A stretch of 28,668 nucleotides of DNA from an uncultured bacterium (GTDB lineage: Bacteria > CAIJMQ01), in the NCBI GenBank assembly GCA_964573245.1, contig CAZNJA010000011.1, forward strand, positions 8,637 to 37,304. Direction: 5' to 3'. This document shows positions 17,409 to 28,668 of the stretch, one piece after another; the stretch's first letter is position 1, and every line of letters begins with the position of its first letter. The translations under genes and the position numbers were made by a program. Below the pieces are notes generated by a model that was given only the letters and a program-made list of their open reading frames with translations, was not told where the DNA came from and made no database searches.

Positions 17409-18227
17409 TTATTGTTCCAATAAATATTTTTCCCATTCTTTCTCTAAATCTTTTATATCGCGTATAGAAGAATAAGAAAATTTGAGCGCTTCTTCTAAAG
17501 TTTTTCCGTCACGAAGCCGTCTACAAAAAGTAGTGAACTTGCCTGTTCCATATTTTCTAATTAAAAAATCAACTAAAGAAGCTGATTGTGCATAAAAAAT
17601 ACGAACCAATTCTTCGTCTTCAATTTTTCTGATATCTAACTCCATAATTGTCTTCAAAGGAATGAGTTTGCCGACTTTTAATAAGCTAACCGCCCTATTT
17701 TTAACTACATGAGGATTTGACCTTTCCTGCCACTGAGCTACTCCCTCATCCAACCATAAAGGGATCTCTCCTTTGAATCCCACAAAATCCCTAAAAATTA
17801 AATGTCCTAATTCATGAGGTAAAATTACATCAATAAATTTTTGGCTTCCTATATAACTAGATACTGTTTTGTCAATATAGTTAGCTTGGCCATGTGACCA
17901 GACAGGGCGGTTATTTGCTTTTACATAAGATTCGTGGTCTGAATAAAGATAAATCTTACATCTTTTGTCCCACAACCAAAAATCAGAATATCTCTGATAA
18001 CCCAAGTTAACAGCAATTTGTTTATAGTATATTTCTGCTTTGTCTAATACTTGTTTTGTAAATTTTTCTTCTTTGGTAGAATAAATTATAAAATGTTCAC
18101 CTTTAAGTTCTATCCATTCTTGCGAATATACGTCAGTTTGCAAACTCAAAAGATACAAGAAAGCTAAAAGAAAACCAAACGCATATTTCATATTAATTTT
18201 AGTGATTTTATTTCTAAAGGTTCCCAT
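17409..18227 (-). CDS. Secreted zinc metallopeptidase (peptidase MA-like)
   Basis: HELGH plus PLWLDEGVA and FYAQSASLVDFL; signal peptide if started at ATG 18191. Confidence 0.82.
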   Translation of the reverse strand: MGTFRNKITKINMKYAFGFLLAFLYLLSLQTDVYSQEWIELKGEHFIIYSTKEEKFTKQVLDKAEIYYKQIAVNLGYQRYSDFWLWDKRCKIYLYSDHESYVKANNRPVWSHGQANYIDKTVSSYIGSQKFIDVILPHELGHLIFRDFVGFKGEIPLWLDEGVAQWQERSNPHVVKNRAVSLLKVGKLIPLKTIMELDIRKIEDEELVRIFYAQSASLVDFLIRKYGTGKFTTFCRRLRDGKTLEEALKFSYSSIRDIKDLEKEWEKYLLEQ

Positions 18228-18233
18228 GTGGAT

Positions 18234-19445
18234 CTATTTAACCATTAGGTTTATTTGGAAAACAGGCAAAAGCATTGCAATTACTATAAAACCTATTACT
18301 GCTCCGACAACCAAAATCATTAAAGGCTCTAAAACTGCCGCCGACGTTGTTAACATCTCCTCAGTCTCTGTTTCATAGGAACTGGCGATTTCCGAGAAAC
18401 CTTCAGCAAATTTACCTGACTCTTCTGAAATAATTATGATATTAGTCATAAAAGTGGGAAATAATTTTAATTTTTTCAAAGCATTGCCGAAAGAGCCACC
18501 CTCTTCTACCTGTTTATGTCCTTGTTCAACCGCTTTTTTCAATACTTCATTATCAAAAATCGGGATTGCAATTTTGATAGCTTCTGAAATGGGAATACCG
18601 CTTACTACCAAAATTTCCAAGCTACGACAAAATCTGCCCAATTCCACTTTTAAGCTAAAATTACCCCATATTGGTATATGTAATTTAAGCTGGCTAAAAA
18701 CAGTCCTATGAATTTTTGTTCCCCGTTTAAAAACAAGGATTAACACAACTATTACTATTAATATCCATATCCACCATCGCTGTAATCCGGAACTTATAGC
18801 CAGAATAATTTGTGTAGGCAAAGGTAGTTCTTGACCTATATCAGAAAACATTTTTACAAGTCTAGGCATTACGAAAACAAACATAAACATTATGGTCAAT
18901 ACTCCAAGAATGGACATTAAAATAGGATATATGAGAGCACTGCGCACACGAGATAAAAATGCATTCTGTTTTTTTAAATGATCCGATATTCTAACCAATG
19001 CATCCGATAAATTACCGCTACTTTCCCCTGCTTGGACCATAGCTATATAAAGAGGAGAAAAAATCTTTGGATATTTTACCAGCACAGAAGAAAAGGATTC
19101 ACCATCTTTTATCTTTGAATAAATTTGCTCTAACAAAATTTTTAAATGAATGTCTTCTGTTTGTTCTAAAATTATAGTCAAACTTTTGGAAAGTTGAACC
19201 CCCGATTTTAATAAACTGGCTAATTGCCTGCTAAAAGTTATCACACTCTTTGTTTTTATTCTTCTATAGGAGACTACTGCAGTACCCAAAACAGATGTAA
19301 ATCCTTGAGGAATTTCTTCTATTTTAATTGGGAAACAGTTTTTTTGACTAAGTTTCTCAATTGCTTTTTCTCTACTCTCAGCTTCTATAACATCTTCTAT
19401 TATTTCTTTAGGGCTTTTTTTAGCCTGATATTTAAATAAAGGCAT
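18234..19445 (-). CDS. T2SS/T4P platform protein GspF/PilC
   Basis: FSRQLASLLKSGV, AGESSGNL, SALIYP, LPLPTQ, LEPLMILVVG..IAMLLPVF. Confidence 0.93.
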   Translation of the reverse strand: MPLFKYQAKKSPKEIIEDVIEAESREKAIEKLSQKNCFPIKIEEIPQGFTSVLGTAVVSYRRIKTKSVITFSRQLASLLKSGVQLSKSLTIILEQTEDIHLKILLEQIYSKIKDGESFSSVLVKYPKIFSPLYIAMVQAGESSGNLSDALVRISDHLKKQNAFLSRVRSALIYPILMSILGVLTIMFMFVFVMPRLVKMFSDIGQELPLPTQIILAISSGLQRWWIWILIVIVVLILVFKRGTKIHRTVFSQLKLHIPIWGNFSLKVELGRFCRSLEILVVSGIPISEAIKIAIPIFDNEVLKKAVEQGHKQVEEGGSFGNALKKLKLFPTFMTNIIIISEESGKFAEGFSEIASSYETETEEMLTTSAAVLEPLMILVVGAVIGFIVIAMLLPVFQINLMVK

Positions 19446-19449
19446 AATA

Positions 19450-19830
19450 TTACCATTCCCCCGTTACATACCTTGAAATCCTGTTTCTTTCTCTGTTGGA
19501 CAAGTCTAGGAAACACGCTCCCATTTCATAAGTTTTATTTTCCTCTATTTCCCTTATCCTCATAATCTTCACTAAACATTTTATTGGTTCTTCATTATCT
19601 AATAATTCCAAATTAATATGTAAGATTGTCCCTATAGGAAATTGCTGAAAAGCAATAAAAAGTATTCCTCCTGCACTAACATTTTTCAATATACTGAATT
19701 GTTCCGAAGAAGTTTTTTCTAAAGATATTTTTTGCGGTGATTTTACAACTTGATATTTAAGATTAAGTTTATTATTTAATCGGATAAAAAGTCTTCTATT
19801 ATTTTGGGAATCATCGCTCAAGGATACCAT
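19450..19830 (-). CDS. PilZ-domain protein
   Basis: RRLFIR (RxxxR) and NVSAGG (D/NxSxxG) motifs. Confidence 0.85.
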   Translation of the reverse strand: MVSLSDDSQNNRRLFIRLNNKLNLKYQVVKSPQKISLEKTSSEQFSILKNVSAGGILFIAFQQFPIGTILHINLELLDNEEPIKCLVKIMRIREIEENKTYEMGACFLDLSNRERNRISRYVTGEW

Positions 19831-19879
19831 ATTTGCGAAAATTACTAAGTTGATAATAATACCTAGGATAACTTATCTT

Positions 19880-21610
19880 TTAATTGCCTTTTTCCTCTTC
19901 CATCAAAGTGTTTTTCAGCACCTCTTCGGGCGTAGTTAAACCTTTAACTACTTTTTGCCACCCATTTTGACTTAAGGAATGCATTCCGTTTTCCAATGCG
20001 ACCTTTTTTATATTACTTGAAGATGCTTTTGATAAAATCAATTCTCTAATCTTTTCATTGATGATTAAAATTTCATATATAGCAGTTCTGCCATAATAAC
20101 CTGTAGAGTTACATTTTTTACAACCTTCTCCCTTGAAAATTTTAACTTCCGAATTTTGAATCCCAAGACTTGATGCAATCATTTTTTTTATTTCTAAAGA
20201 TTTGGTTTTATCCTCTTTCCTGCAATCCGGACAAATCAACCGCACTAATCGCTGAGCCATCAAAGCACTTACGCTTGAAGCAATAAAATAAGGTTCAACT
20301 CCGACATCTATTAATCTTGTAATCCCGCTTGCAGCATCATTCGTATGCAAAGTGGAAAGAACTAAATGTCCAGTCAATGCTGACCTCATAGCTATTTCAG
20401 CAGTTTCCAAATCTCTAACTTCTCCCACCATTATTACATCGGGGTCATGCCTTAATACACTTCTTAAACCCCTAGCAAAAGTCAAACCCGTCTGAGGAGC
20501 CACTTGTATTTGAGTTATGTTTTCAATCTCATATTCAATAGGGTCTTCTATTGTGATTATTTTACAATTCTCGGTGTTTAGTTCGTTCAAAGCAGCATAA
20601 AGAGTGGTAGTTTTACCGCTTCCGGTCGGCCCAGTAACGAAGATTATTCCATAGGGTCTTTTTATCAAATCTTCTACTGTCTTTAAATCTTGAGGAGAAA
20701 CACCCAATCCTTCTATGTTAAGTAGTAATTTCATTGGCAATATCCTAATAACCATGCTTTCTCCAAAAGGAGTGGGTAAAGTAGAAATCCTTAAATCTAA
20801 TGTTTGATTTTGAACTTTAACTATAGCCCGTCCATCCTGCGGAAGCCTTCTTTCCACAATATCCAAATTAGACATGATTTTTATTCTTGAAAATATCGGT
20901 TTTAAGAAATTTTTAAGTTGTACGGGGACATTAGATTTATACAAAATGCCATCTATCCGATAACGTAATCTAAGTTTATCCCTATAAGGTTCGATGTGTA
21001 TATCAGTAGCTCTTTTCTTAAATGCATCCAGAATTATTTGATTAACCAGCTTAACAACAGATGGCTCTTCGGTAAGTTTTTCGATATCTTCTACGTTCTC
21101 TTCCCTTACAGTTTCAGAAACAGCCATTTGTTCTTTAGGCGTCTTTTGGAGTATTTGGTGAACAGTAATAGCTCCTAACCCATACATCGCTTTCAAAGTT
21201 TCAATTATTTCATTTTCAAGAGCAAGAACCTGCTTAATCTCATATCCCAAATAGGTCCTAATTTCATCTTGGGCTTTTACAGACAAAGGATAAGACACGG
21301 CAATTGTCAATATTTTATTTTCTATTTTCAATGGAACAAATTTATAATAAGAAGGAATTTTGACCGGTATTTCGTCTATTAATGTTTTATCAATAGATAT
21401 CTCTCTTATATTTACAAAATCAAGATGTAATTGTTCAACCAAGATTTTCAAGATATCTTCCTCTGATATTATTGCCTTCTGGAGCAAAAGAAATCTGAGT
21501 TCCTGGTTGGAATTTTCAGCATCTTTTATTAAAGAATCTAATAACTGTTTTGAAATTAACCCTTTATCCAACAAAGACCGGCATAGGATAGAATCACTTT
21601 TATTAACCAT
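19880..21610 (-). CDS. T2SS/T4P assembly ATPase GspE/PilB
   Basis: ATDIHIEP, ERRLPQDG, GPTGSGKTT, TIEDPIE, LRHDPDVIMVGEVRD, STLHTND, CPDC/CKKC. Confidence 0.95.
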   Translation of the reverse strand: MVNKSDSILCRSLLDKGLISKQLLDSLIKDAENSNQELRFLLLQKAIISEEDILKILVEQLHLDFVNIREISIDKTLIDEIPVKIPSYYKFVPLKIENKILTIAVSYPLSVKAQDEIRTYLGYEIKQVLALENEIIETLKAMYGLGAITVHQILQKTPKEQMAVSETVREENVEDIEKLTEEPSVVKLVNQIILDAFKKRATDIHIEPYRDKLRLRYRIDGILYKSNVPVQLKNFLKPIFSRIKIMSNLDIVERRLPQDGRAIVKVQNQTLDLRISTLPTPFGESMVIRILPMKLLLNIEGLGVSPQDLKTVEDLIKRPYGIIFVTGPTGSGKTTTLYAALNELNTENCKIITIEDPIEYEIENITQIQVAPQTGLTFARGLRSVLRHDPDVIMVGEVRDLETAEIAMRSALTGHLVLSTLHTNDAASGITRLIDVGVEPYFIASSVSALMAQRLVRLICPDCRKEDKTKSLEIKKMIASSLGIQNSEVKIFKGEGCKKCNSTGYYGRTAIYEILIINEKIRELILSKASSSNIKKVALENGMHSLSQNGWQKVVKGLTTPEEVLKNTLMEEEKGN

Positions 21611-21619
21611 ATTCCACCT

Positions 21620-22090
21620 TTAATCTTTGGTTTTTTCGATTAAATTTCTTATAAACCTGTTTCTATACTGATGATACCGTTTGATGATTTCTGCCATATC
21701 ATCTCTGGAAGTAAGAACAATTTTTAATTTCAAGGGATTAACGATTTTTTCAATTTCCGCTATAGCTACGACATCCAAAAGATCAATAACAGCTATTGTT
21801 ATCGAATCAGCGTCTTTTTCTATTGGGAAACACTTATGTTTTGAGATTAAATAATATGGAAATTCTTTAACCAGAGCTACATCTATATATCTATCTTTAA
21901 TGCTAATATAGCTAATGTCAAACTGTTTCGACAAAATTTGCAATAAAGTTTTTTCCTCAATATACCTTCTACGCACCAGTATAGTGCCTATAAACTCTTT
22001 TGTTGTTTTCTGTTCTTCAAGAGCTTCTTGGAGTTGCTCCGAATTAATAAGCCCATTACCTACTAAAATCTCTCCTACACGTTTAGGCAT
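21620..22090 (-). CDS. Stand-alone MshEN/GSPII_N domain protein
   Basis: RVGEILVGNGLINSEQLQEALEEQ followed by a second half-motif FIGTILVRRRYIEEKTLLQILSKQ; no ATPase domain. Confidence 0.85.
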   Translation of the reverse strand: MPKRVGEILVGNGLINSEQLQEALEEQKTTKEFIGTILVRRRYIEEKTLLQILSKQFDISYISIKDRYIDVALVKEFPYYLISKHKCFPIEKDADSITIAVIDLLDVVAIAEIEKIVNPLKLKIVLTSRDDMAEIIKRYHQYRNRFIRNLIEKTKD

Positions 22091-22275: not shown

Positions 22276-23169
22276 ATGAGACACACTTTAAAAACCTGGC
22301 ATATAATTTATAGCATTATAATTAGCTTTCTAATAATAGCGGAAATGCTGATACCAGAAGCAATTGCCCAAGAAAGAGAAAATGTTTATATGAGGCTTTT
22401 GGCAGTCAATCCTTCAAAAGAAGAAACCCAGAGTGTAAGCATTAAAGAATATCTTCCCCAAGAAGTAACTCCTAAAGATGTTGTAAGCACAGGTGGACTA
22501 AATTTAGAATACGACACAGAACGCGGTTTATACTATGTTTATAAATCGAATATTAAACTGCCTGCAGGTAAAACTATGACTTTTTCCGTTGAATTAAAGG
22601 ATATTTGGTATATTTCCGAAGATAAGCTGAATACTTTAAAAGCTCAAGCAGAAAGTATTCTCAACTCTACGGAAAATACCGAACAATATTCTACAGTTAA
22701 AGAAATTGCCGATGAAATAGCTACCCAAATCGAAAAAACTATTACCTCCCAAAAAGAAGCTGAAGGACTTTCATTCAAACAAGAAGTAGCAACTTACCGT
22801 GATAATATGAACACCTTAAGCCATATTCAAGAAAATATAGAAAGAATGAGAAATTTTTGGGTAACAGCTGGAAAAGGTGAAAGCGGACATTCACAACGTG
22901 CAATGTTAGAAGAATCAAAATTGAAATCAGACATACCATCAAAAACAGCTACATGGATGGTAATCTTCATAATCATAACTTTTATTTTAGTATTGGGAGC
23001 CGCCTTTTTCTTCGCCTGGATTCGTTCAACCCGTTCTATCGAACAAACCACGTCTGAAGCAGCAGAATCCTCTTTCTCTGGACCTGAATTAGAAGATAAA
23101 GAACAAACACAAACTAAAACGCCAGAAGAAAAACAAGAAGAAACAAAAGAAGCAGAAGAAAATAAATGA
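22276..23169 (+). CDS. Exported single-pass membrane hypothetical protein
   Basis: Signal peptide (..EAIA-Q), beta-rich segment then helical/coiled region, TM near the C-terminus, acidic tail. Confidence 0.85.
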   Translation: MRHTLKTWHIIYSIIISFLIIAEMLIPEAIAQERENVYMRLLAVNPSKEETQSVSIKEYLPQEVTPKDVVSTGGLNLEYDTERGLYYVYKSNIKLPAGKTMTFSVELKDIWYISEDKLNTLKAQAESILNSTENTEQYSTVKEIADEIATQIEKTITSQKEAEGLSFKQEVATYRDNMNTLSHIQENIERMRNFWVTAGKGESGHSQRAMLEESKLKSDIPSKTATWMVIFIIITFILVLGAAFFFAWIRSTRSIEQTTSEAAESSFSGPELEDKEQTQTKTPEEKQEETKEAEENK

Positions 23170-23182
23170 ACGACTAAACCCA

Positions 23183-23425
23183 ATGATTAATGTAGTAGCT
23201 ATTACATCTCAAGAGATAGCTTTTAGAGGAAAAGCTCAAAGTGTAATTTTACCAGGGGAACAAGGCATGTTTGAAGTCCTACCATTTCACAAAAACCTTA
23301 TTAGCCGTTTAGTAAAAGGCAAGATTCAAATAGATGAAAGCACTTTTCATATCCTGCGTGGGATAGCCAAAGTAGAAAAAAACTATGTAACCGTAATTAT
23401 GGAAAAAGCGGAGAGCAAAAAATGA
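23183..23425 (+). CDS. ATP synthase epsilon-like protein (N-terminal beta-sandwich only)
   Basis: AFRGKAQSVILPGEQGMFEVLPFHKNLISRLVKGKI...GIAKV..NYVTVI resembles the AtpC LPG..G.FGIL.GH..L pattern; C-terminal helices absent. Confidence 0.8.
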   Translation: MINVVAITSQEIAFRGKAQSVILPGEQGMFEVLPFHKNLISRLVKGKIQIDESTFHILRGIAKVEKNYVTVIMEKAESKK

Positions 23426-23649
23426 GCCATAATATGGCAGTTGTGTTAATTATTTCTTTATCTGTATTGGGACCTTCAATAGTGTTTATAGCCAGTTCAT
23501 TCGCAAGTATTCAAGCTTTAGGCCGTAACCCTTCCGCCTCACCTAAAATTTTTACCGCCATGATAATCACTCTTGCTTTTACGGAGGCATTAGCATTTGT
23601 AGCTCTTTTAGTGGCATTTCAATTATTGGGCAATCAAATCGCCCCTTAA
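23422..23649 (+). CDS. ATP synthase c-subunit-like proteolipid
   Basis: Two TM helices, loop ALGRNPSA, conserved carboxylate FTEAL; lacks GxGxGxG. Confidence 0.82.
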   Translation: MSHNMAVVLIISLSVLGPSIVFIASSFASIQALGRNPSASPKIFTAMIITLAFTEALAFVALLVAFQLLGNQIAP

Positions 23650-24051
23650 ATGTATAAAAAAATGGGAAAAAACAAAGTTTTATTAGTTGATGATAACCCT
23701 GAATATTTGGAATTAACAAGTTTCTATTTAAAAAACCAAGGATATATGGTGGATATAGCTAATTCAGGAGAAGAAGCTCTATCCAAAATAAAAAAAGATA
23801 GACCTGCAATAGTATTTTTAGATCTACAAATGCCCAAAATAGGCGGATTAGAATTATTAAAACAAATCAAAGCTCTATATCCCGACCTTCCTGTAATTAT
23901 AGTCAGTGCGCACGGAGATAAGGAAAAAGAAGAACAGGCAAAAAAGGCAGGTGCCACGGATTTTTATTGCAAAGGTGATGATTTTACGAAAGCAGCTCAA
24001 CTTATTGAAATGACTCTATATGGAAAGCTGTCAGAATCAGAAGAAGGGTAA
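23650..24051 (+). CDS. Single-domain response regulator
   Basis: LLVDD, FLDLQMP, IIVSA, FYCK. Confidence 0.92.
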   Translation: MYKKMGKNKVLLVDDNPEYLELTSFYLKNQGYMVDIANSGEEALSKIKKDRPAIVFLDLQMPKIGGLELLKQIKALYPDLPVIIVSAHGDKEKEEQAKKAGATDFYCKGDDFTKAAQLIEMTLYGKLSESEEG

Positions 24052-25520
24052 TGCTTAAATCCATCTCATTTAGAACAATAATTGTATTTATTTTCTATAT
24101 AGTCTTGTACAATCAAGTTTATGCAACTGATGAACTAGCTAAAGAAACCAACAATTTCCCATTAATATTTTTTGTAGCAATTGTCATTGTTAGTTTATTA
24201 ATTGCCTTTATTTTGATTTTTTTTGCTAAACAACATGCTCAGATATCAGAACAATATATGCCCTCCAAAAAAGAGCCAATCGATTCAGTTATTTTCGAAG
24301 AAATAAATAGATTGACAAATTCCGAGGGTCATCAAAAAAAAGAAACTATTAAAAAAATTTCCAGTCTTTTTAAAGAAGAAATTCAAAAAAAGGTTGATAC
24401 GGTTACTCAGGAAATAAGCCGGAAATATGATACTACAATCAAAGAACAAAACCAAAACCTAACAATGGTTCAGCAAAAGTATACTAAGCTGGATTCGGAC
24501 AAAAAACAGACTGAATCAATTATTAGAAGTATTGCCGAAGGTTTGGTAGTCGTAAATAATAAAGGTGAGGTTCTTTTAATGAATCCCGTTGCAAAAAACC
24601 TTCTTGGAGTTAAAGAGGAAAAGAACAGACCTAATCTTAATAATCTCGGGGATGAGTATCTACTGTCTTTTAAAAAATCCACTGAAGAAAAGCAGGAAAT
24701 AGTTATTCAAAGTTCCAAAGATGAGACTAAAAAAGTTTTAAGGTCAAGTAGCGCTGTAATAGAAAATGAAAACGGGAAAACTATAGGGATGGTTTCAGTT
24801 TTGAGCGATGTTACTAAACAAAAGGAATTGGAAGAGATGAAATCAAGTTTTGTTTCCAGCATTTCCCATGAATTACGTACACCTTTGATATCTATCCAGA
24901 AATCGGTAGATTTAATATTAAGTAAAGCAGCTGGTCCACTCACTAAAGAACAAGAAAACTTTCTCAATATCACTGGGAATAATTTGAAGAGACTTACTTA
25001 TCTTATCAATGATATTTTAGACCTTTCTAAAATGGAATCAAAGAAGATGACACTGGAGTTAAAACCTACCCAGATAGAAAAAGTTATCAATGATGCTTGC
25101 GAGAGTTTGCAGGGTTGGGCAGATTCAAAATCCATTAAAATAGATAAAATAATTGCTGAGAATTTACCTGATGTTAACATAGATTCTTTCCGGGTAATCC
25201 AAATATTCAATAATCTACTTGGAAATGCTATGAAATTTACTCCCCAAAATGGTGTTATTAGCATTAAAGTTCAATTAATAGAACCAAAAAACAAGCTGGA
25301 GATCAGTGTAAGTGATACAGGTATAGGAATAGACGAAAAAGACATTGACAAAGTTTTTGATAGATTTCAACAGGGAGGCAATAGAGTGTCCACCGATATA
25401 AGCGGGACAGGCTTAGGTTTATTTATCACCAAAGAACTTGTCCAGCTACATGGTGGAAAAATTTGGGTGGAAAGCAAAAAAGCTCAAGGAACCAAATTCA
25501 CATTCAATCTCCCTCTTTAA
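24051..25520 (+). CDS. Membrane-anchored PAS histidine kinase
   Basis: Two N-terminal hydrophobic segments, coiled coil, PAS, SHELRTPL, NLLGNAMKF, DTGIGI, GTGLGL. Confidence 0.93.
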   Translation: MLKSISFRTIIVFIFYIVLYNQVYATDELAKETNNFPLIFFVAIVIVSLLIAFILIFFAKQHAQISEQYMPSKKEPIDSVIFEEINRLTNSEGHQKKETIKKISSLFKEEIQKKVDTVTQEISRKYDTTIKEQNQNLTMVQQKYTKLDSDKKQTESIIRSIAEGLVVVNNKGEVLLMNPVAKNLLGVKEEKNRPNLNNLGDEYLLSFKKSTEEKQEIVIQSSKDETKKVLRSSSAVIENENGKTIGMVSVLSDVTKQKELEEMKSSFVSSISHELRTPLISIQKSVDLILSKAAGPLTKEQENFLNITGNNLKRLTYLINDILDLSKMESKKMTLELKPTQIEKVINDACESLQGWADSKSIKIDKIIAENLPDVNIDSFRVIQIFNNLLGNAMKFTPQNGVISIKVQLIEPKNKLEISVSDTGIGIDEKDIDKVFDRFQQGGNRVSTDISGTGLGLFITKELVQLHGGKIWVESKKAQGTKFTFNLPL

Positions 25521-25554: not shown

Positions 25555-26508
25555 ATGGGTAAAAAAGCGAAATATATAATATTTTATGTTTTATTTTTAA
25601 TTATATACAGCAGCGGACTATCGCAAGAGGAAAAAGCTAAAAATTTATTGATTATTATGGATTCTTCAAGAAGCATGCTTCAACTAACTAGCGACGGCAA
25701 AGAGAAATTATGGGCAGCAAAAATGGCTTTGAACAAATTACTCGATAAACTGCCCGATGAGATAAATGTTGCTCTTATGGTTTTTGGACATAGAGAAAAA
25801 GATAAATGTGACGATATAGAAATAGTTTTGCCACTTGCTCCTTTGGATAAAACAGCTATAAGGAAAACATTAGAACCTTTGAAACCAACCGGAGTAACTC
25901 CTCTTATGGCTTCATTAGACCGAGCAGCTGAACACCTTGAGCAATTTAACGGTAAATCTACAATATTATTGTTGACTGATGGGAGAGAAACATGTGGCGG
26001 TAACCCTGTAGAATTAGTTTCTAATATATTAGATAAATACGGCATAATAGTAATAGTAGATGTTGTGGGACTTAATGTGAAATTAATTGAAAAAACCCAA
26101 TTAGAAGCTATAGCAAAAGCAGGAGGAGGCAACTATTATTCTGCAAATAGTTCATATGAACTTGCCTTTGTTATTACAGAAGCTGTAGAACAAAGAGTGA
26201 TAGAAATAGACGAAAATAAAAACCAAAAGTCAAAAGAACAAAAAGCAGAAAAAATAAATAATGGTAAACTTGGAACTTTATTGATAAACCACACTCATAT
26301 TTTAAACTCTATAGTTATTTATGACAATCAAACAGGCGAAAGAGTAGACGGACAAACCATGTGGATCCATTCAGAAAATCAGTATAGCACCCTTTTAGAA
26401 GAAGGATTATATAAGATTGACATATATAGTTCCTCTCAAGAAACTCCTATAAAGATTGAAAACGTAAGGATCAAACCCAATAAGAAAACTACAATAAACG
26501 TAAATTAA
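25555..26508 (+). CDS. Exported vWA-domain protein
   Basis: Signal peptide, MIDAS DSSRS..GVTPL..LLTDG, C-terminal beta domain. Confidence 0.9.
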   Translation: MGKKAKYIIFYVLFLIIYSSGLSQEEKAKNLLIIMDSSRSMLQLTSDGKEKLWAAKMALNKLLDKLPDEINVALMVFGHREKDKCDDIEIVLPLAPLDKTAIRKTLEPLKPTGVTPLMASLDRAAEHLEQFNGKSTILLLTDGRETCGGNPVELVSNILDKYGIIVIVDVVGLNVKLIEKTQLEAIAKAGGGNYYSANSSYELAFVITEAVEQRVIEIDENKNQKSKEQKAEKINNGKLGTLLINHTHILNSIVIYDNQTGERVDGQTMWIHSENQYSTLLEEGLYKIDIYSSSQETPIKIENVRIKPNKKTTINVN

Positions 26509-26538: not shown

Positions 26539-26922
26539 TTATTGTTCTTTAAATTTTAAAGCTTTTTCTATAGTTTTAATAATAAAATCTGTTTGTGCAG
26601 GCTTTGTAATATAGTCTACTACTCCCACTTTATAAGCTTTAAGTTTATCTATATCCTTATCCAAAGCAGAAAGCACGATTATAGGAATTCGGCTACCCAC
26701 AGGATCTTCATTTAACATCTGACAAGCTTCTATGCCTCCTACCCCTGGCATAAGCAAATCAAGTAAAATAACATCAGGTTTAAAATCGTTTACTCGGGAT
26801 ATAATATCTTTAGCAATTGATAAGGTTAAAACATCGTATTCCCCGGTTTGTTCTAAATTCAACTTTAACATCTTCAAGAAATCCTCTTCATCATCAACAA
26901 TCATTATCTTTTTCTTTTCCAT
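26539..26922 (-). CDS. Single-domain response regulator
   Basis: IVDDEE, LLDLLMP, IVLSA, YITKP. Confidence 0.93.
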   Translation of the reverse strand: MEKKKIMIVDDEEDFLKMLKLNLEQTGEYDVLTLSIAKDIISRVNDFKPDVILLDLLMPGVGGIEACQMLNEDPVGSRIPIIVLSALDKDIDKLKAYKVGVVDYITKPAQTDFIIKTIEKALKFKEQ

Positions 26923-26924
26923 AA

Positions 26925-28136
26925 TTATTTACCTCCACGAATTTTTAATGTTATTATACATTTTGTTCCTTTATTTTCTTGACTTTGCACTCCTATCATA
27001 CCTGTATGCATTTCAATTATATTCCTTGTAACAGAAAGGCCCAAGCCCGCTCCTCCTCTGGGACCTTTTGTAGTAAAAAAAGGTGTGTAAAGTTTCTGCA
27101 GATTTTCCTTGGAAATACCGGCACCCGTATCCTCTATCTCTATAATAGCCGCCTTTTCGCCAAGTCCAAAATAATCACTTGCTCTTCTACCTACCCTATT
27201 CTCCAGCTTATCAAGTTTTTTTGTATAACCGCGTATAAAAATTGTTCCGCCATTAGGCATAGCTTGAACAGCATTCAAAAACAAATTAATAAATACTTGT
27301 TCCATTTTCGCACCGTCAATCAAAACTCTCGGAAAATTCTTTTTAAATTCTTTAACGATTTTAATATTTTCAAGTTTAACTCTGGGTTTTATTAAATCTA
27401 ACGAATGTATTATTGTAGGTTTTATATCTTGTGATTTTAATGTTAATTCTGATATCCTTACAAAATCAGAAAGAGTGCGGATAATATGGTCAGCTCTTTT
27501 TATATTATCCATTATCATATTAAGAGTATCTTGTATGTTTTTTTTAGGAGAATGAACATTCTCTTTTAAATATTCAGTTGCCTGCATAATGATCGCTAAT
27601 GGATTTTTAACCTCATGAGCTACACCACCCGCCAGTTGGACTATGGCATTGGCTTTCTCTGCTTGAATGAGTTCAACTCTTGCTTCACTGAGTTTGGAGT
27701 AAGCTTTTTTCAATTCTTCTTCTGTTTTCTTGTATTTGGTAATATCAATGGTAAATCCGATAATACCTATAATATCCCCTTTTTCATTACGGTACGGTAT
27801 TTTATTTGTCTGTACCCACAGTAAGCCTTTCTTAGTGCGCATTGTTTCAATAATGTCTAATTTCGGTTCTCCGGACTTTATAACTTCTTTATCATCTTTC
27901 CAGTAATGGTCAGCTTCTTCCTTGGGATAAAGGTCCCACAGAGTCTTACCTTCAATCTTTCCTTTTGAAAGACCATTTGCTTTAGCAAATGCGGCGTTGA
28001 CATATATAAAACGGTTTTTACGGTCCTTATAAAAAATCATTGTCGGCGAAGAATTGAAAATAATGTTAAGTTCATTGTATTTTTGATTCAATGTCTTCTT
28101 TATCTTTTTATTGATTTTTTTACTTTTCCCTGCCAT
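26925..28136 (-). CDS. Cytoplasmic PAS histidine kinase (NtrB-like)
   Basis: PAS/PAC, AHEVKNPL, NLFLNAVQAM, DTGAGI, PFFTTK, GAGLGL. Confidence 0.93.
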   Translation of the reverse strand: MAGKSKKINKKIKKTLNQKYNELNIIFNSSPTMIFYKDRKNRFIYVNAAFAKANGLSKGKIEGKTLWDLYPKEEADHYWKDDKEVIKSGEPKLDIIETMRTKKGLLWVQTNKIPYRNEKGDIIGIIGFTIDITKYKKTEEELKKAYSKLSEARVELIQAEKANAIVQLAGGVAHEVKNPLAIIMQATEYLKENVHSPKKNIQDTLNMIMDNIKRADHIIRTLSDFVRISELTLKSQDIKPTIIHSLDLIKPRVKLENIKIVKEFKKNFPRVLIDGAKMEQVFINLFLNAVQAMPNGGTIFIRGYTKKLDKLENRVGRRASDYFGLGEKAAIIEIEDTGAGISKENLQKLYTPFFTTKGPRGGAGLGLSVTRNIIEMHTGMIGVQSQENKGTKCIITLKIRGGK

Positions 28137-28159: not shown

Positions 28160-28668
28160 CTATTTTACACTTAATTCTGATTTACTGGGTAAAATAAACA
28201 CTTTTGATATATACATATTACATCTGACAATATTGGTTTCTTCTTCCTTCGGCGTGATTAACATTCTTTCTACGCTTAATAATTGTTCGGAGTTTTCTAT
28301 TCTATAAAGAAAATCAAAAATATTTCCCATCGAAGCTTCACAATTTAAACTTATAAAATATTCTTTTATTGAATCATCTTCTTCTTGAGAAAGAGCTGGT
28401 TTTATATCCAATAATTCCACAGAAGAATTCTTAGTTAAATTTTCGATACTTGTTAAAAATGTAATTGGCTCTTCTTGTTTTGACTCTATTTTTTCAAAGT
28501 ATGGCGCATATTTATCATATTCAGTCATAATTTCGTCCTTACGCGATAATAAAAGAAGGTTCTTCCTGATGTTCTTCTCCTGTTCATTGGTCTCTTTATC
28601 CAGAAGCTCAATCTTTAAAATAGCAGGGTTTAAAATTAAATGGTTCATCGCTAAAGAGAAAACCAAAA
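28160..28668 (-). CDS. PilO/GspM-like pilus/secretion alignment protein, partial (5' end outside window)
   Basis: TM end, coiled coil, FL..IENL...S.VEL.DIKP, IFDFLYRIEN...LLSVERM.I pattern. Confidence 0.65.
   Translation of the reverse strand, partial: LVFSLAMNHLILNPAILKIELLDKETNEQEKNIRKNLLLLSRKDEIMTEYDKYAPYFEKIESKQEEPITFLTSIENLTKNSSVELLDIKPALSQEEDDSIKEYFISLNCEASMGNIFDFLYRIENSEQLLSVERMLITPKEEETNIVRCNMYISKVFILPSKSELSVK

Follow-up and report, generated by a model that had tools for sequence, protein, structure and literature searches.

A memb297-epsilon-c gene block in a Ratteibacteria-like genome as the probable rotor end of a pilus-linked, non-respiratory F-type ATPase module

The window analysed here is a stretch of 28,668 nucleotides from an uncultured, Ratteibacteria-like bacterium (contig C11:8637-37304 of genome G000, an assembly of 1.46 Mb in 110 contigs that is 93% complete), and it terminates where C11 terminates. 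Our subject is a series of five genes on its forward strand, in which two subunits of an F-type ATP synthase stand next to a two-component system. These genes encode a 297-amino-acid (aa) membrane protein (memb297, 22276-23169), an F-type epsilon subunit consisting of the N-terminal beta-sandwich only (80 aa, 23183-23425), a divergent F-type c subunit (75 aa, 23422-23649), a stand-alone receiver-domain response regulator (RR; 133 aa, 23650-24051) and a membrane histidine kinase (HK; 489 aa, 24051-25520). A gap of 13 nt separates memb297 from epsilon; epsilon and c overlap in an ATGA (23422-23425), the TAA of c abuts the ATG of the RR gene (23647-23652), and RR and HK overlap in a TAATG (24049-24053). 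The start of memb297 lies 186 bp from a divergently transcribed MshEN-GspE-PilZ-GspF block, characteristic of type II secretion systems and type IV pili (T2SS/T4P). A congener assembled independently (locus L052 of genome G003) shows this layout as well, and the c/RR and RR/HK junctions are bridged by contigs of identical DNA from runs X2 and X4, although these runs may be the window's own source. Promoter-like and terminator-like sites occur in the window at chance frequency (22 against 17.7+/-4.9, and 3 against 3.2+/-1.9, respectively). An earlier interpretation made from the letters alone (hereafter the sequence-only reading) had described these five open reading frames (ORFs), their order, their junctions and the divergent T2SS/T4P operon, and all of this is borne out.

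Profile searches with hidden Markov models (HMMs) place both small proteins in the families that had been proposed for them. The epsilon protein matches PF02823 over residues 5-76 (E 4.6e-13, 49.4 bits, cut-off 27), remains below the atpC equivalog model (TIGR01216, 53.5 bits vs 67.25) and aligns with residues 7-82 only of solved epsilon chains of 134-138 aa. Shortness is a property of the whole family, whose median length is 77 aa, with 72 of 76 members not exceeding 86 aa. The c protein matches PF00137 (E 1.9e-8, 34.8 bits, cut-off 24) and is likewise below its equivalog (TIGR01260, 19.5 bits vs 43.95). In an alignment with c subunits of known structure, Glu55 occupies the position of the canonical carrier Glu and the GRNP motif that of the cytoplasmic loop, while the glycine motif is lost, since helix 1 reads SLSVLGPSIVFI as compared to GLGAIGPGVGIG in the references. 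The beta-domain-only epsilon and the c subunit with RNP loop and Glu are thus as the sequence-only reading had them. Across the family (81 ORFs plus the window copy, n=82) the carrier position is occupied by Q in 40 cases, E in 34, A in 5 and other residues in 3, and at least 13 changes between the E and non-E states are required over 70 rows on the tree of alpha subunits described below. By comparison, the loop ALGRNPS..PKIF and Q67 are invariant; in F-ATPases it is at the c loop that gamma and epsilon make contact. Homologues of c with 58-75% identity are labelled Omnitrophota or Omnitrophica, and a copy with 92% identity is labelled Candidatus Ratteibacteria. Between G000 and G003, c is 93% and epsilon 62% identical, with no stops.

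Two relatives of the c gene show unusual arrangements. At L109:988-1450 two c genes lie in tandem (60% and 42% identical to window c), both with Q at the carrier site; this is the sole locus with a duplicated c among the 80 compared below. In the closest metagenome relative (L160:1-800, with a c 82% identical), c comes after an ORF whose end carries the memb297 tail motif and a spacer of ~300 bp that contains a direct repeat; epsilon, RR and b-delta are all absent next to c, and this 2.4-kb contig is too short to interpret.

No a, b, delta, alpha, beta or gamma subunit was found among the 32 window ORFs scanned. The sequence-only reading had accordingly called the epsilon and c genes orphans, which holds for the window but not for the genome. 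Profile searches of the G000 contigs for F-type and V/A-type subunits revealed every F-type subunit except a exactly once, split over contigs C11 and C12. On C12 the order is AAA_22, T2SS-C-like, secretin, TPR, b-delta, alpha, gamma, beta, a 202-aa protein, an IS200-type transposase, a 185-aa protein and a large ORF. The b-delta gene starts just beyond the end of the TPR gene, behind the secretin and T2SS-C genes, and encodes a fused protein of 235 aa matching PF00430 and PF00213; alpha, gamma and beta measure 495, 284 and 463 aa, respectively. The gamma subunit is below its equivalog cut-off (102 vs 194.45). All 61 beta sequences carry the Walker A motif GGAGxGK[TS] and GERxREG without variation, and the F1 head looks, from these motifs, catalytically intact and active. 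The 202-aa protein after beta has no Pfam match, and L053 holds its sole homologue among the 80 loci.

The G000 b-delta gene corresponds to L012:5639-6346 and has 73 homologues in the loci; the fusion is family-wide, at 216-282 aa. Its match to the delta/OSCP profile covers positions 100-167 of 172, hence the C-terminal part only, and the part of delta that canonically caps alpha may therefore be missing.

The window epsilon is the sole epsilon match in G000, and the only other c match is a duplicated proteolipid beside a V_ATPase_I gene on C16. Of the two alpha/beta pairs in the genome, the F-type one lies on C12 and the other, on C5, is a V/A-type A/B pair, which together with I, K, E, C and F on C16 makes up a near-complete V/A-type enzyme. 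The housekeeping enzyme of this organism is of V/A type. The sequence-only reading had suggested looking for the canonical atp operon and a second atpA/D/G set; the F-type set on C12 is the only one in the genome. The window genes are indeed the only F-type epsilon and c genes of G000 and belong to a split operon, but that operon is not a housekeeping one and its neighbourhood is strongly conserved, as described in the following.

A family-alignment scan of genome contigs returned 317 c-encoding loci, the best 80 of which, mostly from Omnitrophota, were compared by tblastn using 23 proteins from the window and C12. The dominant order, with all genes in the same direction, is memb297 or a giant ORF, epsilon, c, b-delta, alpha, gamma, beta, (MshEN), GspE, PilZ, GspF and peptidase-MA; pseudopilin or pilin genes lie further downstream. 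Epsilon is immediately upstream of c in 73/73 loci with at least 400 bp of room, and memb297 upstream of epsilon in 65/65 loci with at least 1.5 kb. In 72 of 75 loci c is immediately followed by b-delta; in the other three its place is taken by alpha (L118), RR (L052) or an unrelated gene (L053). Among the metagenome family contigs, b-delta likewise follows c in 15 of 17. Where at least 9 kb of room is available, beta and GspE are found downstream of c in 48/49 loci and GspF in 49/49. RR/HK-like matches occur anywhere in 3 of the 80 loci, and next to c solely in L052, that is, in the congener. The window proteins are 53-74% (c), 38-57% (epsilon), 31-47% (memb297) and 47-61% (GspE) identical to the Omnitrophota copies. 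Of the neighbourhood whose conservation the sequence-only reading proposed to examine, c, epsilon and gspE/F are conserved, but RR/HK is not (1/75). In G000 itself the uninterrupted order from memb297 or giant ORF to GspE is absent, the parts being all present but split between C11 and C12.

A second split example is provided by L053:7505-13668, which carries the closest Omnitrophota relative of window c (74%). Its order is giant ORF, a 228-aa memb297-like protein, a homologue of the 202-aa protein, memb297, epsilon, c, a 329-aa protein and an 831-aa HEAT-repeat protein, with neither b-delta nor alpha in the block, which is convergent on a GspF-peptidase-GspG-J-K-PilMN-u168 operon (u168 is described at the end).

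Subunit a is the one component that we failed to detect. PF00119 gave zero matches at E<=1 in G000, G001, G002 and G003, while the control search was positive in 9 of 14 reference genomes. Beyond these, the search took in 49 other carrier genomes (29 further loci are not covered by it), of which 34 have no PF00119 match at E<=0.001. The remaining 15 carriers have one strong match each, and in the four inspected (4/4) this subunit a belongs to a separate canonical operon whose alpha is 41-43% identical to the G000 alpha. Moreover, no unassigned conserved ORF is found between memb297 and beta across the 80 loci.

The relatives of memb297 connect the block to very large proteins. In 39 of 71 family ORFs, the ~240 aa homologous to memb297 constitute the C-terminal end of an ORF longer than 345 aa. 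Of these 39 long ORFs, 33 are longer than 1000 aa; 37 run into the limit of the 10-kb flank and were therefore taken to exceed ~3000 aa. Free-standing memb297 genes (~230-345 aa) lie directly behind a same-strand ORF in 24 cases, this ORF being at least 1000 aa long (17) or cut by the start of the locus (7); four others stand behind a small complete ORF. A single giant-ORF sequence family covers 26 of these loci. Judging from this homology, memb297 corresponds to the anchor module at the C-terminus of the giant ORFs, encoded as a gene of its own. G000 also has a large ORF of its own on C12 (L256:3786-11408, + strand), of at least 2541 aa and extending past the contig end, which is ~30% identical over ~2000 residues to the Omnitrophota giant-ORF family and internally repetitive. 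Since this ORF is homologous to the giant family, all parts of the module are present in G000, in scattered form.

Counted by locus, an ORF of at least 1000 aa accompanies memb297 in 50 of 70 cases (33 fused, 17 preceding), with 13 more cut by the locus start. The giant ORF thus stands immediately upstream of epsilon-c-b/delta-alpha-gamma-beta, for example at L065:3-9755, L076:1-9771 and L112:3-5657 (within L055-L131).

An AlphaFold2 model of memb297, built from a 27-row alignment (mean predicted local distance difference test score, pLDDT, 83.9), opens with a signal or transmembrane (TM) helix, followed by a beta-sandwich of seven strands (37-107), a bundle of three helices (115-197) and a long TM helix (223-266), and closes with a disordered acidic tail. 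W227, I230, F236 and W248 in the TM helix are invariant, which suggests specific intramembrane contacts. This topology, with a periplasmic domain, a single C-terminal TM helix and a short cytoplasmic tail, presumably recalls the accessory subunits inside V-ATPase c-rings. Foldseek found no match in the PDB at E<=0.001 (best 0.012), and VIA-align wide returned generic three-helix-bundle matches only (Z<=10.2, residues ~109-204), below the caution level of ~13 for helical bundles and with the beta-sandwich barely tested. In the protein atlas, memb297 falls in unnamed clusters only, commonest in Omnitrophota. A complex prediction with four c copies and residues 200-297 of memb297 scored 0.00 against a mark of 0.32, for a partial ring and with no controls, and speaks neither for nor against a contact. 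That memb297 might substitute for subunit a was also weighed and set aside as the principal interpretation: subunit a is a five- to six-helix channel, and memb297 has at most two TM helices.

The distribution of the module in its host group is patchy. The phylum of G000 is represented in our collection by nine species genomes and its genus by four; epsilon, c and F-type alpha are restricted to G000 and G003 (2/9 and 2/4, respectively), while V/A-type A/B-like matches occur in 8/9 genomes of the phylum. The window GspE has an 80% orthologue in G003 and paralogues of at most 47% in the other four genomes searched. Similarly, the HK has a 63% orthologue in G003, the best matches in G001 and G002 being 30%. 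The alpha tree (IQ-TREE quick, LG+G4) comprises 103 rows, namely 69 pilus-linked sequences, 2 from Ratteibacteria, 28 housekeeping sequences from unrelated genomes and 4 beta sequences as outgroup. The 69 pilus-linked and two Ratteibacteria sequences form a clade of 71 (SH-aLRT 95), apart from the 28 housekeeping ones (93), and the Ratteibacteria pair is placed inside the Omnitrophota-dominated clade under branches of 95 and 97. The whole module was probably acquired from Omnitrophota and then rearranged, the direction of transfer being our reading of the tree, and the IS200-type transposase on C12 is compatible with such a rearrangement.

Taken together, we consider it likely, with a probability of roughly 80%, that memb297-epsilon-c forms the rotor and membrane part of an F-type ATPase module which is non-respiratory, is linked genetically to a T2SS/T4P-like machine and is of the type called 'symbiotic' in Omnitrophota, probably acquired from there and rearranged, with RR/HK as a local add-on. 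In the course of this rearrangement, b-delta, alpha, gamma, beta and the large ORF of the giant family would have moved to C12 behind the secretin cluster, while the GspE block would have been inverted so as to face memb297-epsilon-c, and RR/HK and the von Willebrand-type VWA gene that follows them would have been placed directly after c, with translational coupling. As to its working, ATP hydrolysis by alpha3beta3 would drive the rotation of gamma, the short epsilon and the c-ring relative to the b-delta stalk. The c-ring would be a mechanical element embedded in the membrane that carries no ions, because subunit a is missing and the carrier residue is freely E or Q across the family. Its predicted partner is the conserved TM helix of memb297 or of the giant protein, alongside the pilus or secretion ATPase, and the output would serve the T2SS/T4P-like apparatus and the giant surface protein in cell-cell attachment. 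RR/HK, proposed to be co-expressed with the rotor genes, would be a local regulatory addition and not the reason for the presence of these genes; it might sense the state of the membrane complex. The most specific version of this scheme can be offered tentatively, as a possibility that we would not bet on: a rotary motor devoid of subunit a, whose c-ring, without transporting ions, would be coupled mechanically to the cell envelope through the memb297 or giant-protein TM helix, so that ATP hydrolysis would move or twist a giant adhesin-like protein beside the T2SS/T4P machine.

Some observations weigh against the non-respiratory module. Glu55 is kept in window c and its closest relatives, and ion binding is possible in this lineage. 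The alpha and beta subunits exceed the atpA and atpD equivalog cut-offs (546.3 vs 484.45 and 538.9 vs 462.85), so that the F1 head alone is indistinguishable from that of a synthase. The absence of subunit a rests on metagenome-assembled genomes, G000 being 93% and G003 81% complete, and the alpha tree includes neither respiratory alphas of Omnitrophota nor Mycoplasma type 2/type 3 sequences. In addition, instead of having been transferred, the module may have been inherited vertically from a common ancestor with Omnitrophota, with many losses after.

The sequence-only reading had favoured epsilon and c as a repurposed rotor fragment that senses ion-motive force or membrane state and signals to the adjacent intramembrane HK. 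The tight translational coupling from epsilon through c and RR to HK, and the conservation of this arrangement in the congener, speak for a functional link of this kind; in addition, the two hydrophobic helices at the N-terminus of the HK are separated by a very short loop, and short-loop kinases rely on membrane partners. We nevertheless find this very unlikely. The rest of the F-type set resides in the same genome and co-occurs in exactly the same 2/9 genomes, and the supposed orphan fragment is in its relatives followed directly by b-delta and the other subunits. RR/HK follows c in 1/75 loci and 0/17 metagenome family loci, hence in the two Ratteibacteria genomes only; the carrier Glu is dispensable across the family, with Q in 40/82, and no subunit a is available to provide an ion path. 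What does stand from the sequence-only reading is its other proposal, a divergent F-type motor linked to the pilus, which matches the published Omnitrophota system. An ordinary housekeeping F1Fo ATP synthase whose operon was split over two loci would explain why these are the sole F-type epsilon and c of G000 and why alpha and beta pass the atpA/atpD cut-offs. It is, though, hardly credible in a genome with a V/A-type enzyme and no subunit a, in a phylum where A/B-like genes occur in 8/9 genomes and the F-type set in 2/9; furthermore, gamma, epsilon and c fail their equivalogs, alpha belongs to the pilus-linked clade, and both halves of the set adjoin secretion or pilus genes.

An ion-pumping F-type ATPase of N-ATPase kind, in which some unrecognised component stands in for subunit a, if only in lineages that bear the Glu, appears improbable, if less so than the two preceding explanations. 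It would account for Glu55 in the window copy and its nearest relatives and for a catalytically intact F1, and memb297 is a conserved membrane protein whose role is not known. Yet the alternate-F1Fo models for c, alpha and beta score below threshold (values below), memb297 with at most two TM helices and a periplasmic domain is unlike a channel, and the alternation of E and Q at least 13 times within one clade is hard to square with an essential ion site. Finally, the rotor genes could be a decaying remnant, unused after rearrangement and heading for loss, as their patchy occurrence (2/4 genus genomes), the IS200-type transposase beside the C12 block and the L160 relative without epsilon between memb297 tail and c might indicate. 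Such decay has very little to recommend it, given that two species have all the ORFs intact and translationally coupled, that c and epsilon are 93% and 62% identical between these species without stops, and that G000 retains all module parts somewhere.

The non-respiratory module resembles several known systems in part. As in the available descriptions of the Omnitrophota 'symbiotic' locus, F-type alpha, beta and gamma are found beside GspE, GspF and pilin genes, with an alpha clade apart from the housekeeping one, and at both G000 loci the F-type genes lie less than 10 kb from type-4a pilus (T4aP) or T2SS genes. Unlike in that locus, the host is Ratteibacteria-like, the cluster lies on two contigs, the GspE block is inverted and RR/HK/VWA come after c. 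Compared with canonical F1Fo, alpha and beta pass their equivalogs with Walker A and catalytic Glu intact, and gamma, epsilon, c, b and delta are all recognisable; in contrast, subunit a is lacking, the glycine motif of c is gone and its carboxylate is lost across the family, epsilon has no C-terminal helical domain, b and delta are fused, and the genes are inside a secretion/pilus cluster. The Mycoplasma type 2/type 3 F1-like ATPases, including the M. mobile gliding motor, are, in the accounts available to us, a similar case of an F1-type head put to non-chemiosmotic use in a small host-associated bacterium. A further likeness is that the gliding motor is associated with very large surface proteins (Gli proteins). 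On the other hand, the G000 system keeps a c subunit, an epsilon and a b-delta stalk, while to our knowledge the type 2/3 systems have no c-ring, and the scores of G000 proteins fall short of the Mycoplasma models (MMOB1660, 389.5 vs 600; MMOB1670, 432.7 vs 850; MSC_0619, 298 vs 520; MSC_0618, 380.9 vs 570). Like an N-ATPase, or alternate F1Fo, the G000 system is a second, accessory and probably horizontally acquired F-type enzyme. In N-ATPases, however, a subunit a is present and c binds sodium or protons, and none of their models (TIGR03322/03324/03305/03321) is reached (c, 15.9 vs 130.85; alpha, 496.7 vs 750.5; beta, 487.7 vs 752; b, 43 vs 224.7). By HMM score, genuine atpA/atpD are nearer to the G000 head than the Mycoplasma gliding, MSC_0618/0619 and alternate-F1Fo families are.

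The sequence-only reading had mentioned pilus-associated F-type genes in Omnitrophota, and such a system has indeed been published. The available text of Seymour 2023 (Nat Microbiol, PMC10066038) describes a non-respiratory F-type ATP synthase homologue beside type-4a pilus clusters, present in 56 of 111 Velamenicoccia species, with both gene sets within 10 kb in 57 of 66 contigs; the ATPase is proposed to serve cell-cell attachment, and giant ORFs are treated as a separate feature. In its main text, as available, there is no mention of c-subunit, subunit c, c-ring, two-component or histidine kinase, and the missing subunit a, the E/Q carrier site and the fusion of memb297 with giant ORFs are not noted; Supplementary Table 8 or Fig. 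13 may hold gene-level detail. A preprint on giant genes (10.1101/2023.11.21.568195) ties them, in its accessible part, to T2SS-like loci and pilZ genes, reports no protein of at least 5000 aa in 34 Ratteibacteria genomes, and leaves 'ATP synthase' and 'F-type' unmentioned. In the accessible part of a 2026 preprint (10.64898/2026.06.07.730766), F1Fo is scored incomplete in most Omnitrophota and is unconnected to giant genes. That giant genes abut F-type ATPase genes is stated neither in Seymour 2023 nor in the two giant-gene preprints, as far as their available texts go. The missing subunit a, the E/Q carrier site and memb297 as giant-ORF anchor are thus apparently unreported in the texts searched.

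The window adds a cross-phylum, split and two-component-coupled variant to the published Omnitrophota system. It removes a false lead, the orphan rotor fragment as sensor, and places the genes in a system that is published and barely dissected. If the motor is mechanically coupled to the giant protein as tentatively proposed above, giant ORF, F-type ATPase and pilus/T2SS genes, reported separately as 'symbiosis signatures' of Omnitrophota, would be one apparatus, transferable between phyla. The Ratteibacteria copy indicates that such a module can pass from one phylum to another and retain every part even in scattered form. Should the ring be mechanical, the Mycoplasma gliding motor would be joined by a second, independent example of an F-type ATPase converted to generate force for cell-surface machinery, and the first such example that keeps the membrane rotor. 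The free 297-aa anchor, replacing a protein of several thousand residues, would offer a smaller version that is easier to express and study.

The remaining genes of the window surround this block on both sides. The divergent block on the reverse strand begins with a stand-alone MshEN domain protein of c-di-GMP (cyclic di-GMP)-binding type (21620..22090; PF05157 E 1.7e-14; NF053729 62.7 bits, above the cut-off of 38). MshEN-only homologues are found upstream of GspE in many related loci, with 33 family ORFs detected by blastp in the 80 loci. Next come a GspE/PilB-type secretion or pilus ATPase with an N-terminal MshEN domain (19880..21610; PF00437 E 8e-134), whose scores for TIGR02533 (588.6 bits) and TIGR02538 (577.6 bits) are both under cut-off, a PilZ-domain protein of the c-di-GMP receptor type (19450..19830; PF07238 E 6.1e-14), which in related loci also lies between GspE and GspF, and a GspF/PilC platform protein (18234..19445; PF00482 E 4e-54). 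The last conserved gene of the T2SS/T4P-like block encodes a peptidase MA-family protein (17409..18227; PF13485 E 1.1e-15); its homologues (28-59% identity; 42 ORFs across the 80 loci by blastp) come after GspF in related loci. Three c-di-GMP-type receptor modules therefore stand in a row at 19450-22090 (-), namely the MshEN-only protein, GspE with its own MshEN and PilZ, an arrangement which suggests that the pilus or secretion ATPase is under c-di-GMP control.

On the forward strand, RR (PF00072 E 1.2e-27) and HK (PF02518 E 8.8e-32, PF00512 E 1.9e-15, with weak PAS matches) show the Pfam domains of a two-component system, that is, a receiver domain on the one hand and HisKA plus HATPase_c on the other; both are lineage-specific additions to the block. 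Downstream of HK lies the gene of a secreted or anchored VWA-domain protein (25555..26508, +; PF00092 E 2.1e-11), which has a 65% homologue at the equivalent position in the congener (L052). A VWA homologue, 45% identical to that of the window, is also found between memb297 and epsilon at L113:8785-9700, a locus labelled Planctomycetota, hinting that the VWA protein may be a module member in some lineages. Convergent with the VWA gene is a second RR/HK pair (26539-28136, -; PAS-HisKA-HATPase_c), which is kept at the equivalent place in the congener (76% and 62% identity); pairs similar to it are found in L062 and L101, ~9 kb downstream of c. At the contig end, u168 (28160..28666, -) encodes an unnamed protein with no Pfam match. 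Its 38% homologue in L053 is located immediately downstream of a PilM-PilN fusion and GspK/J/G genes, and u168 is probably part of the pilus assembly platform.

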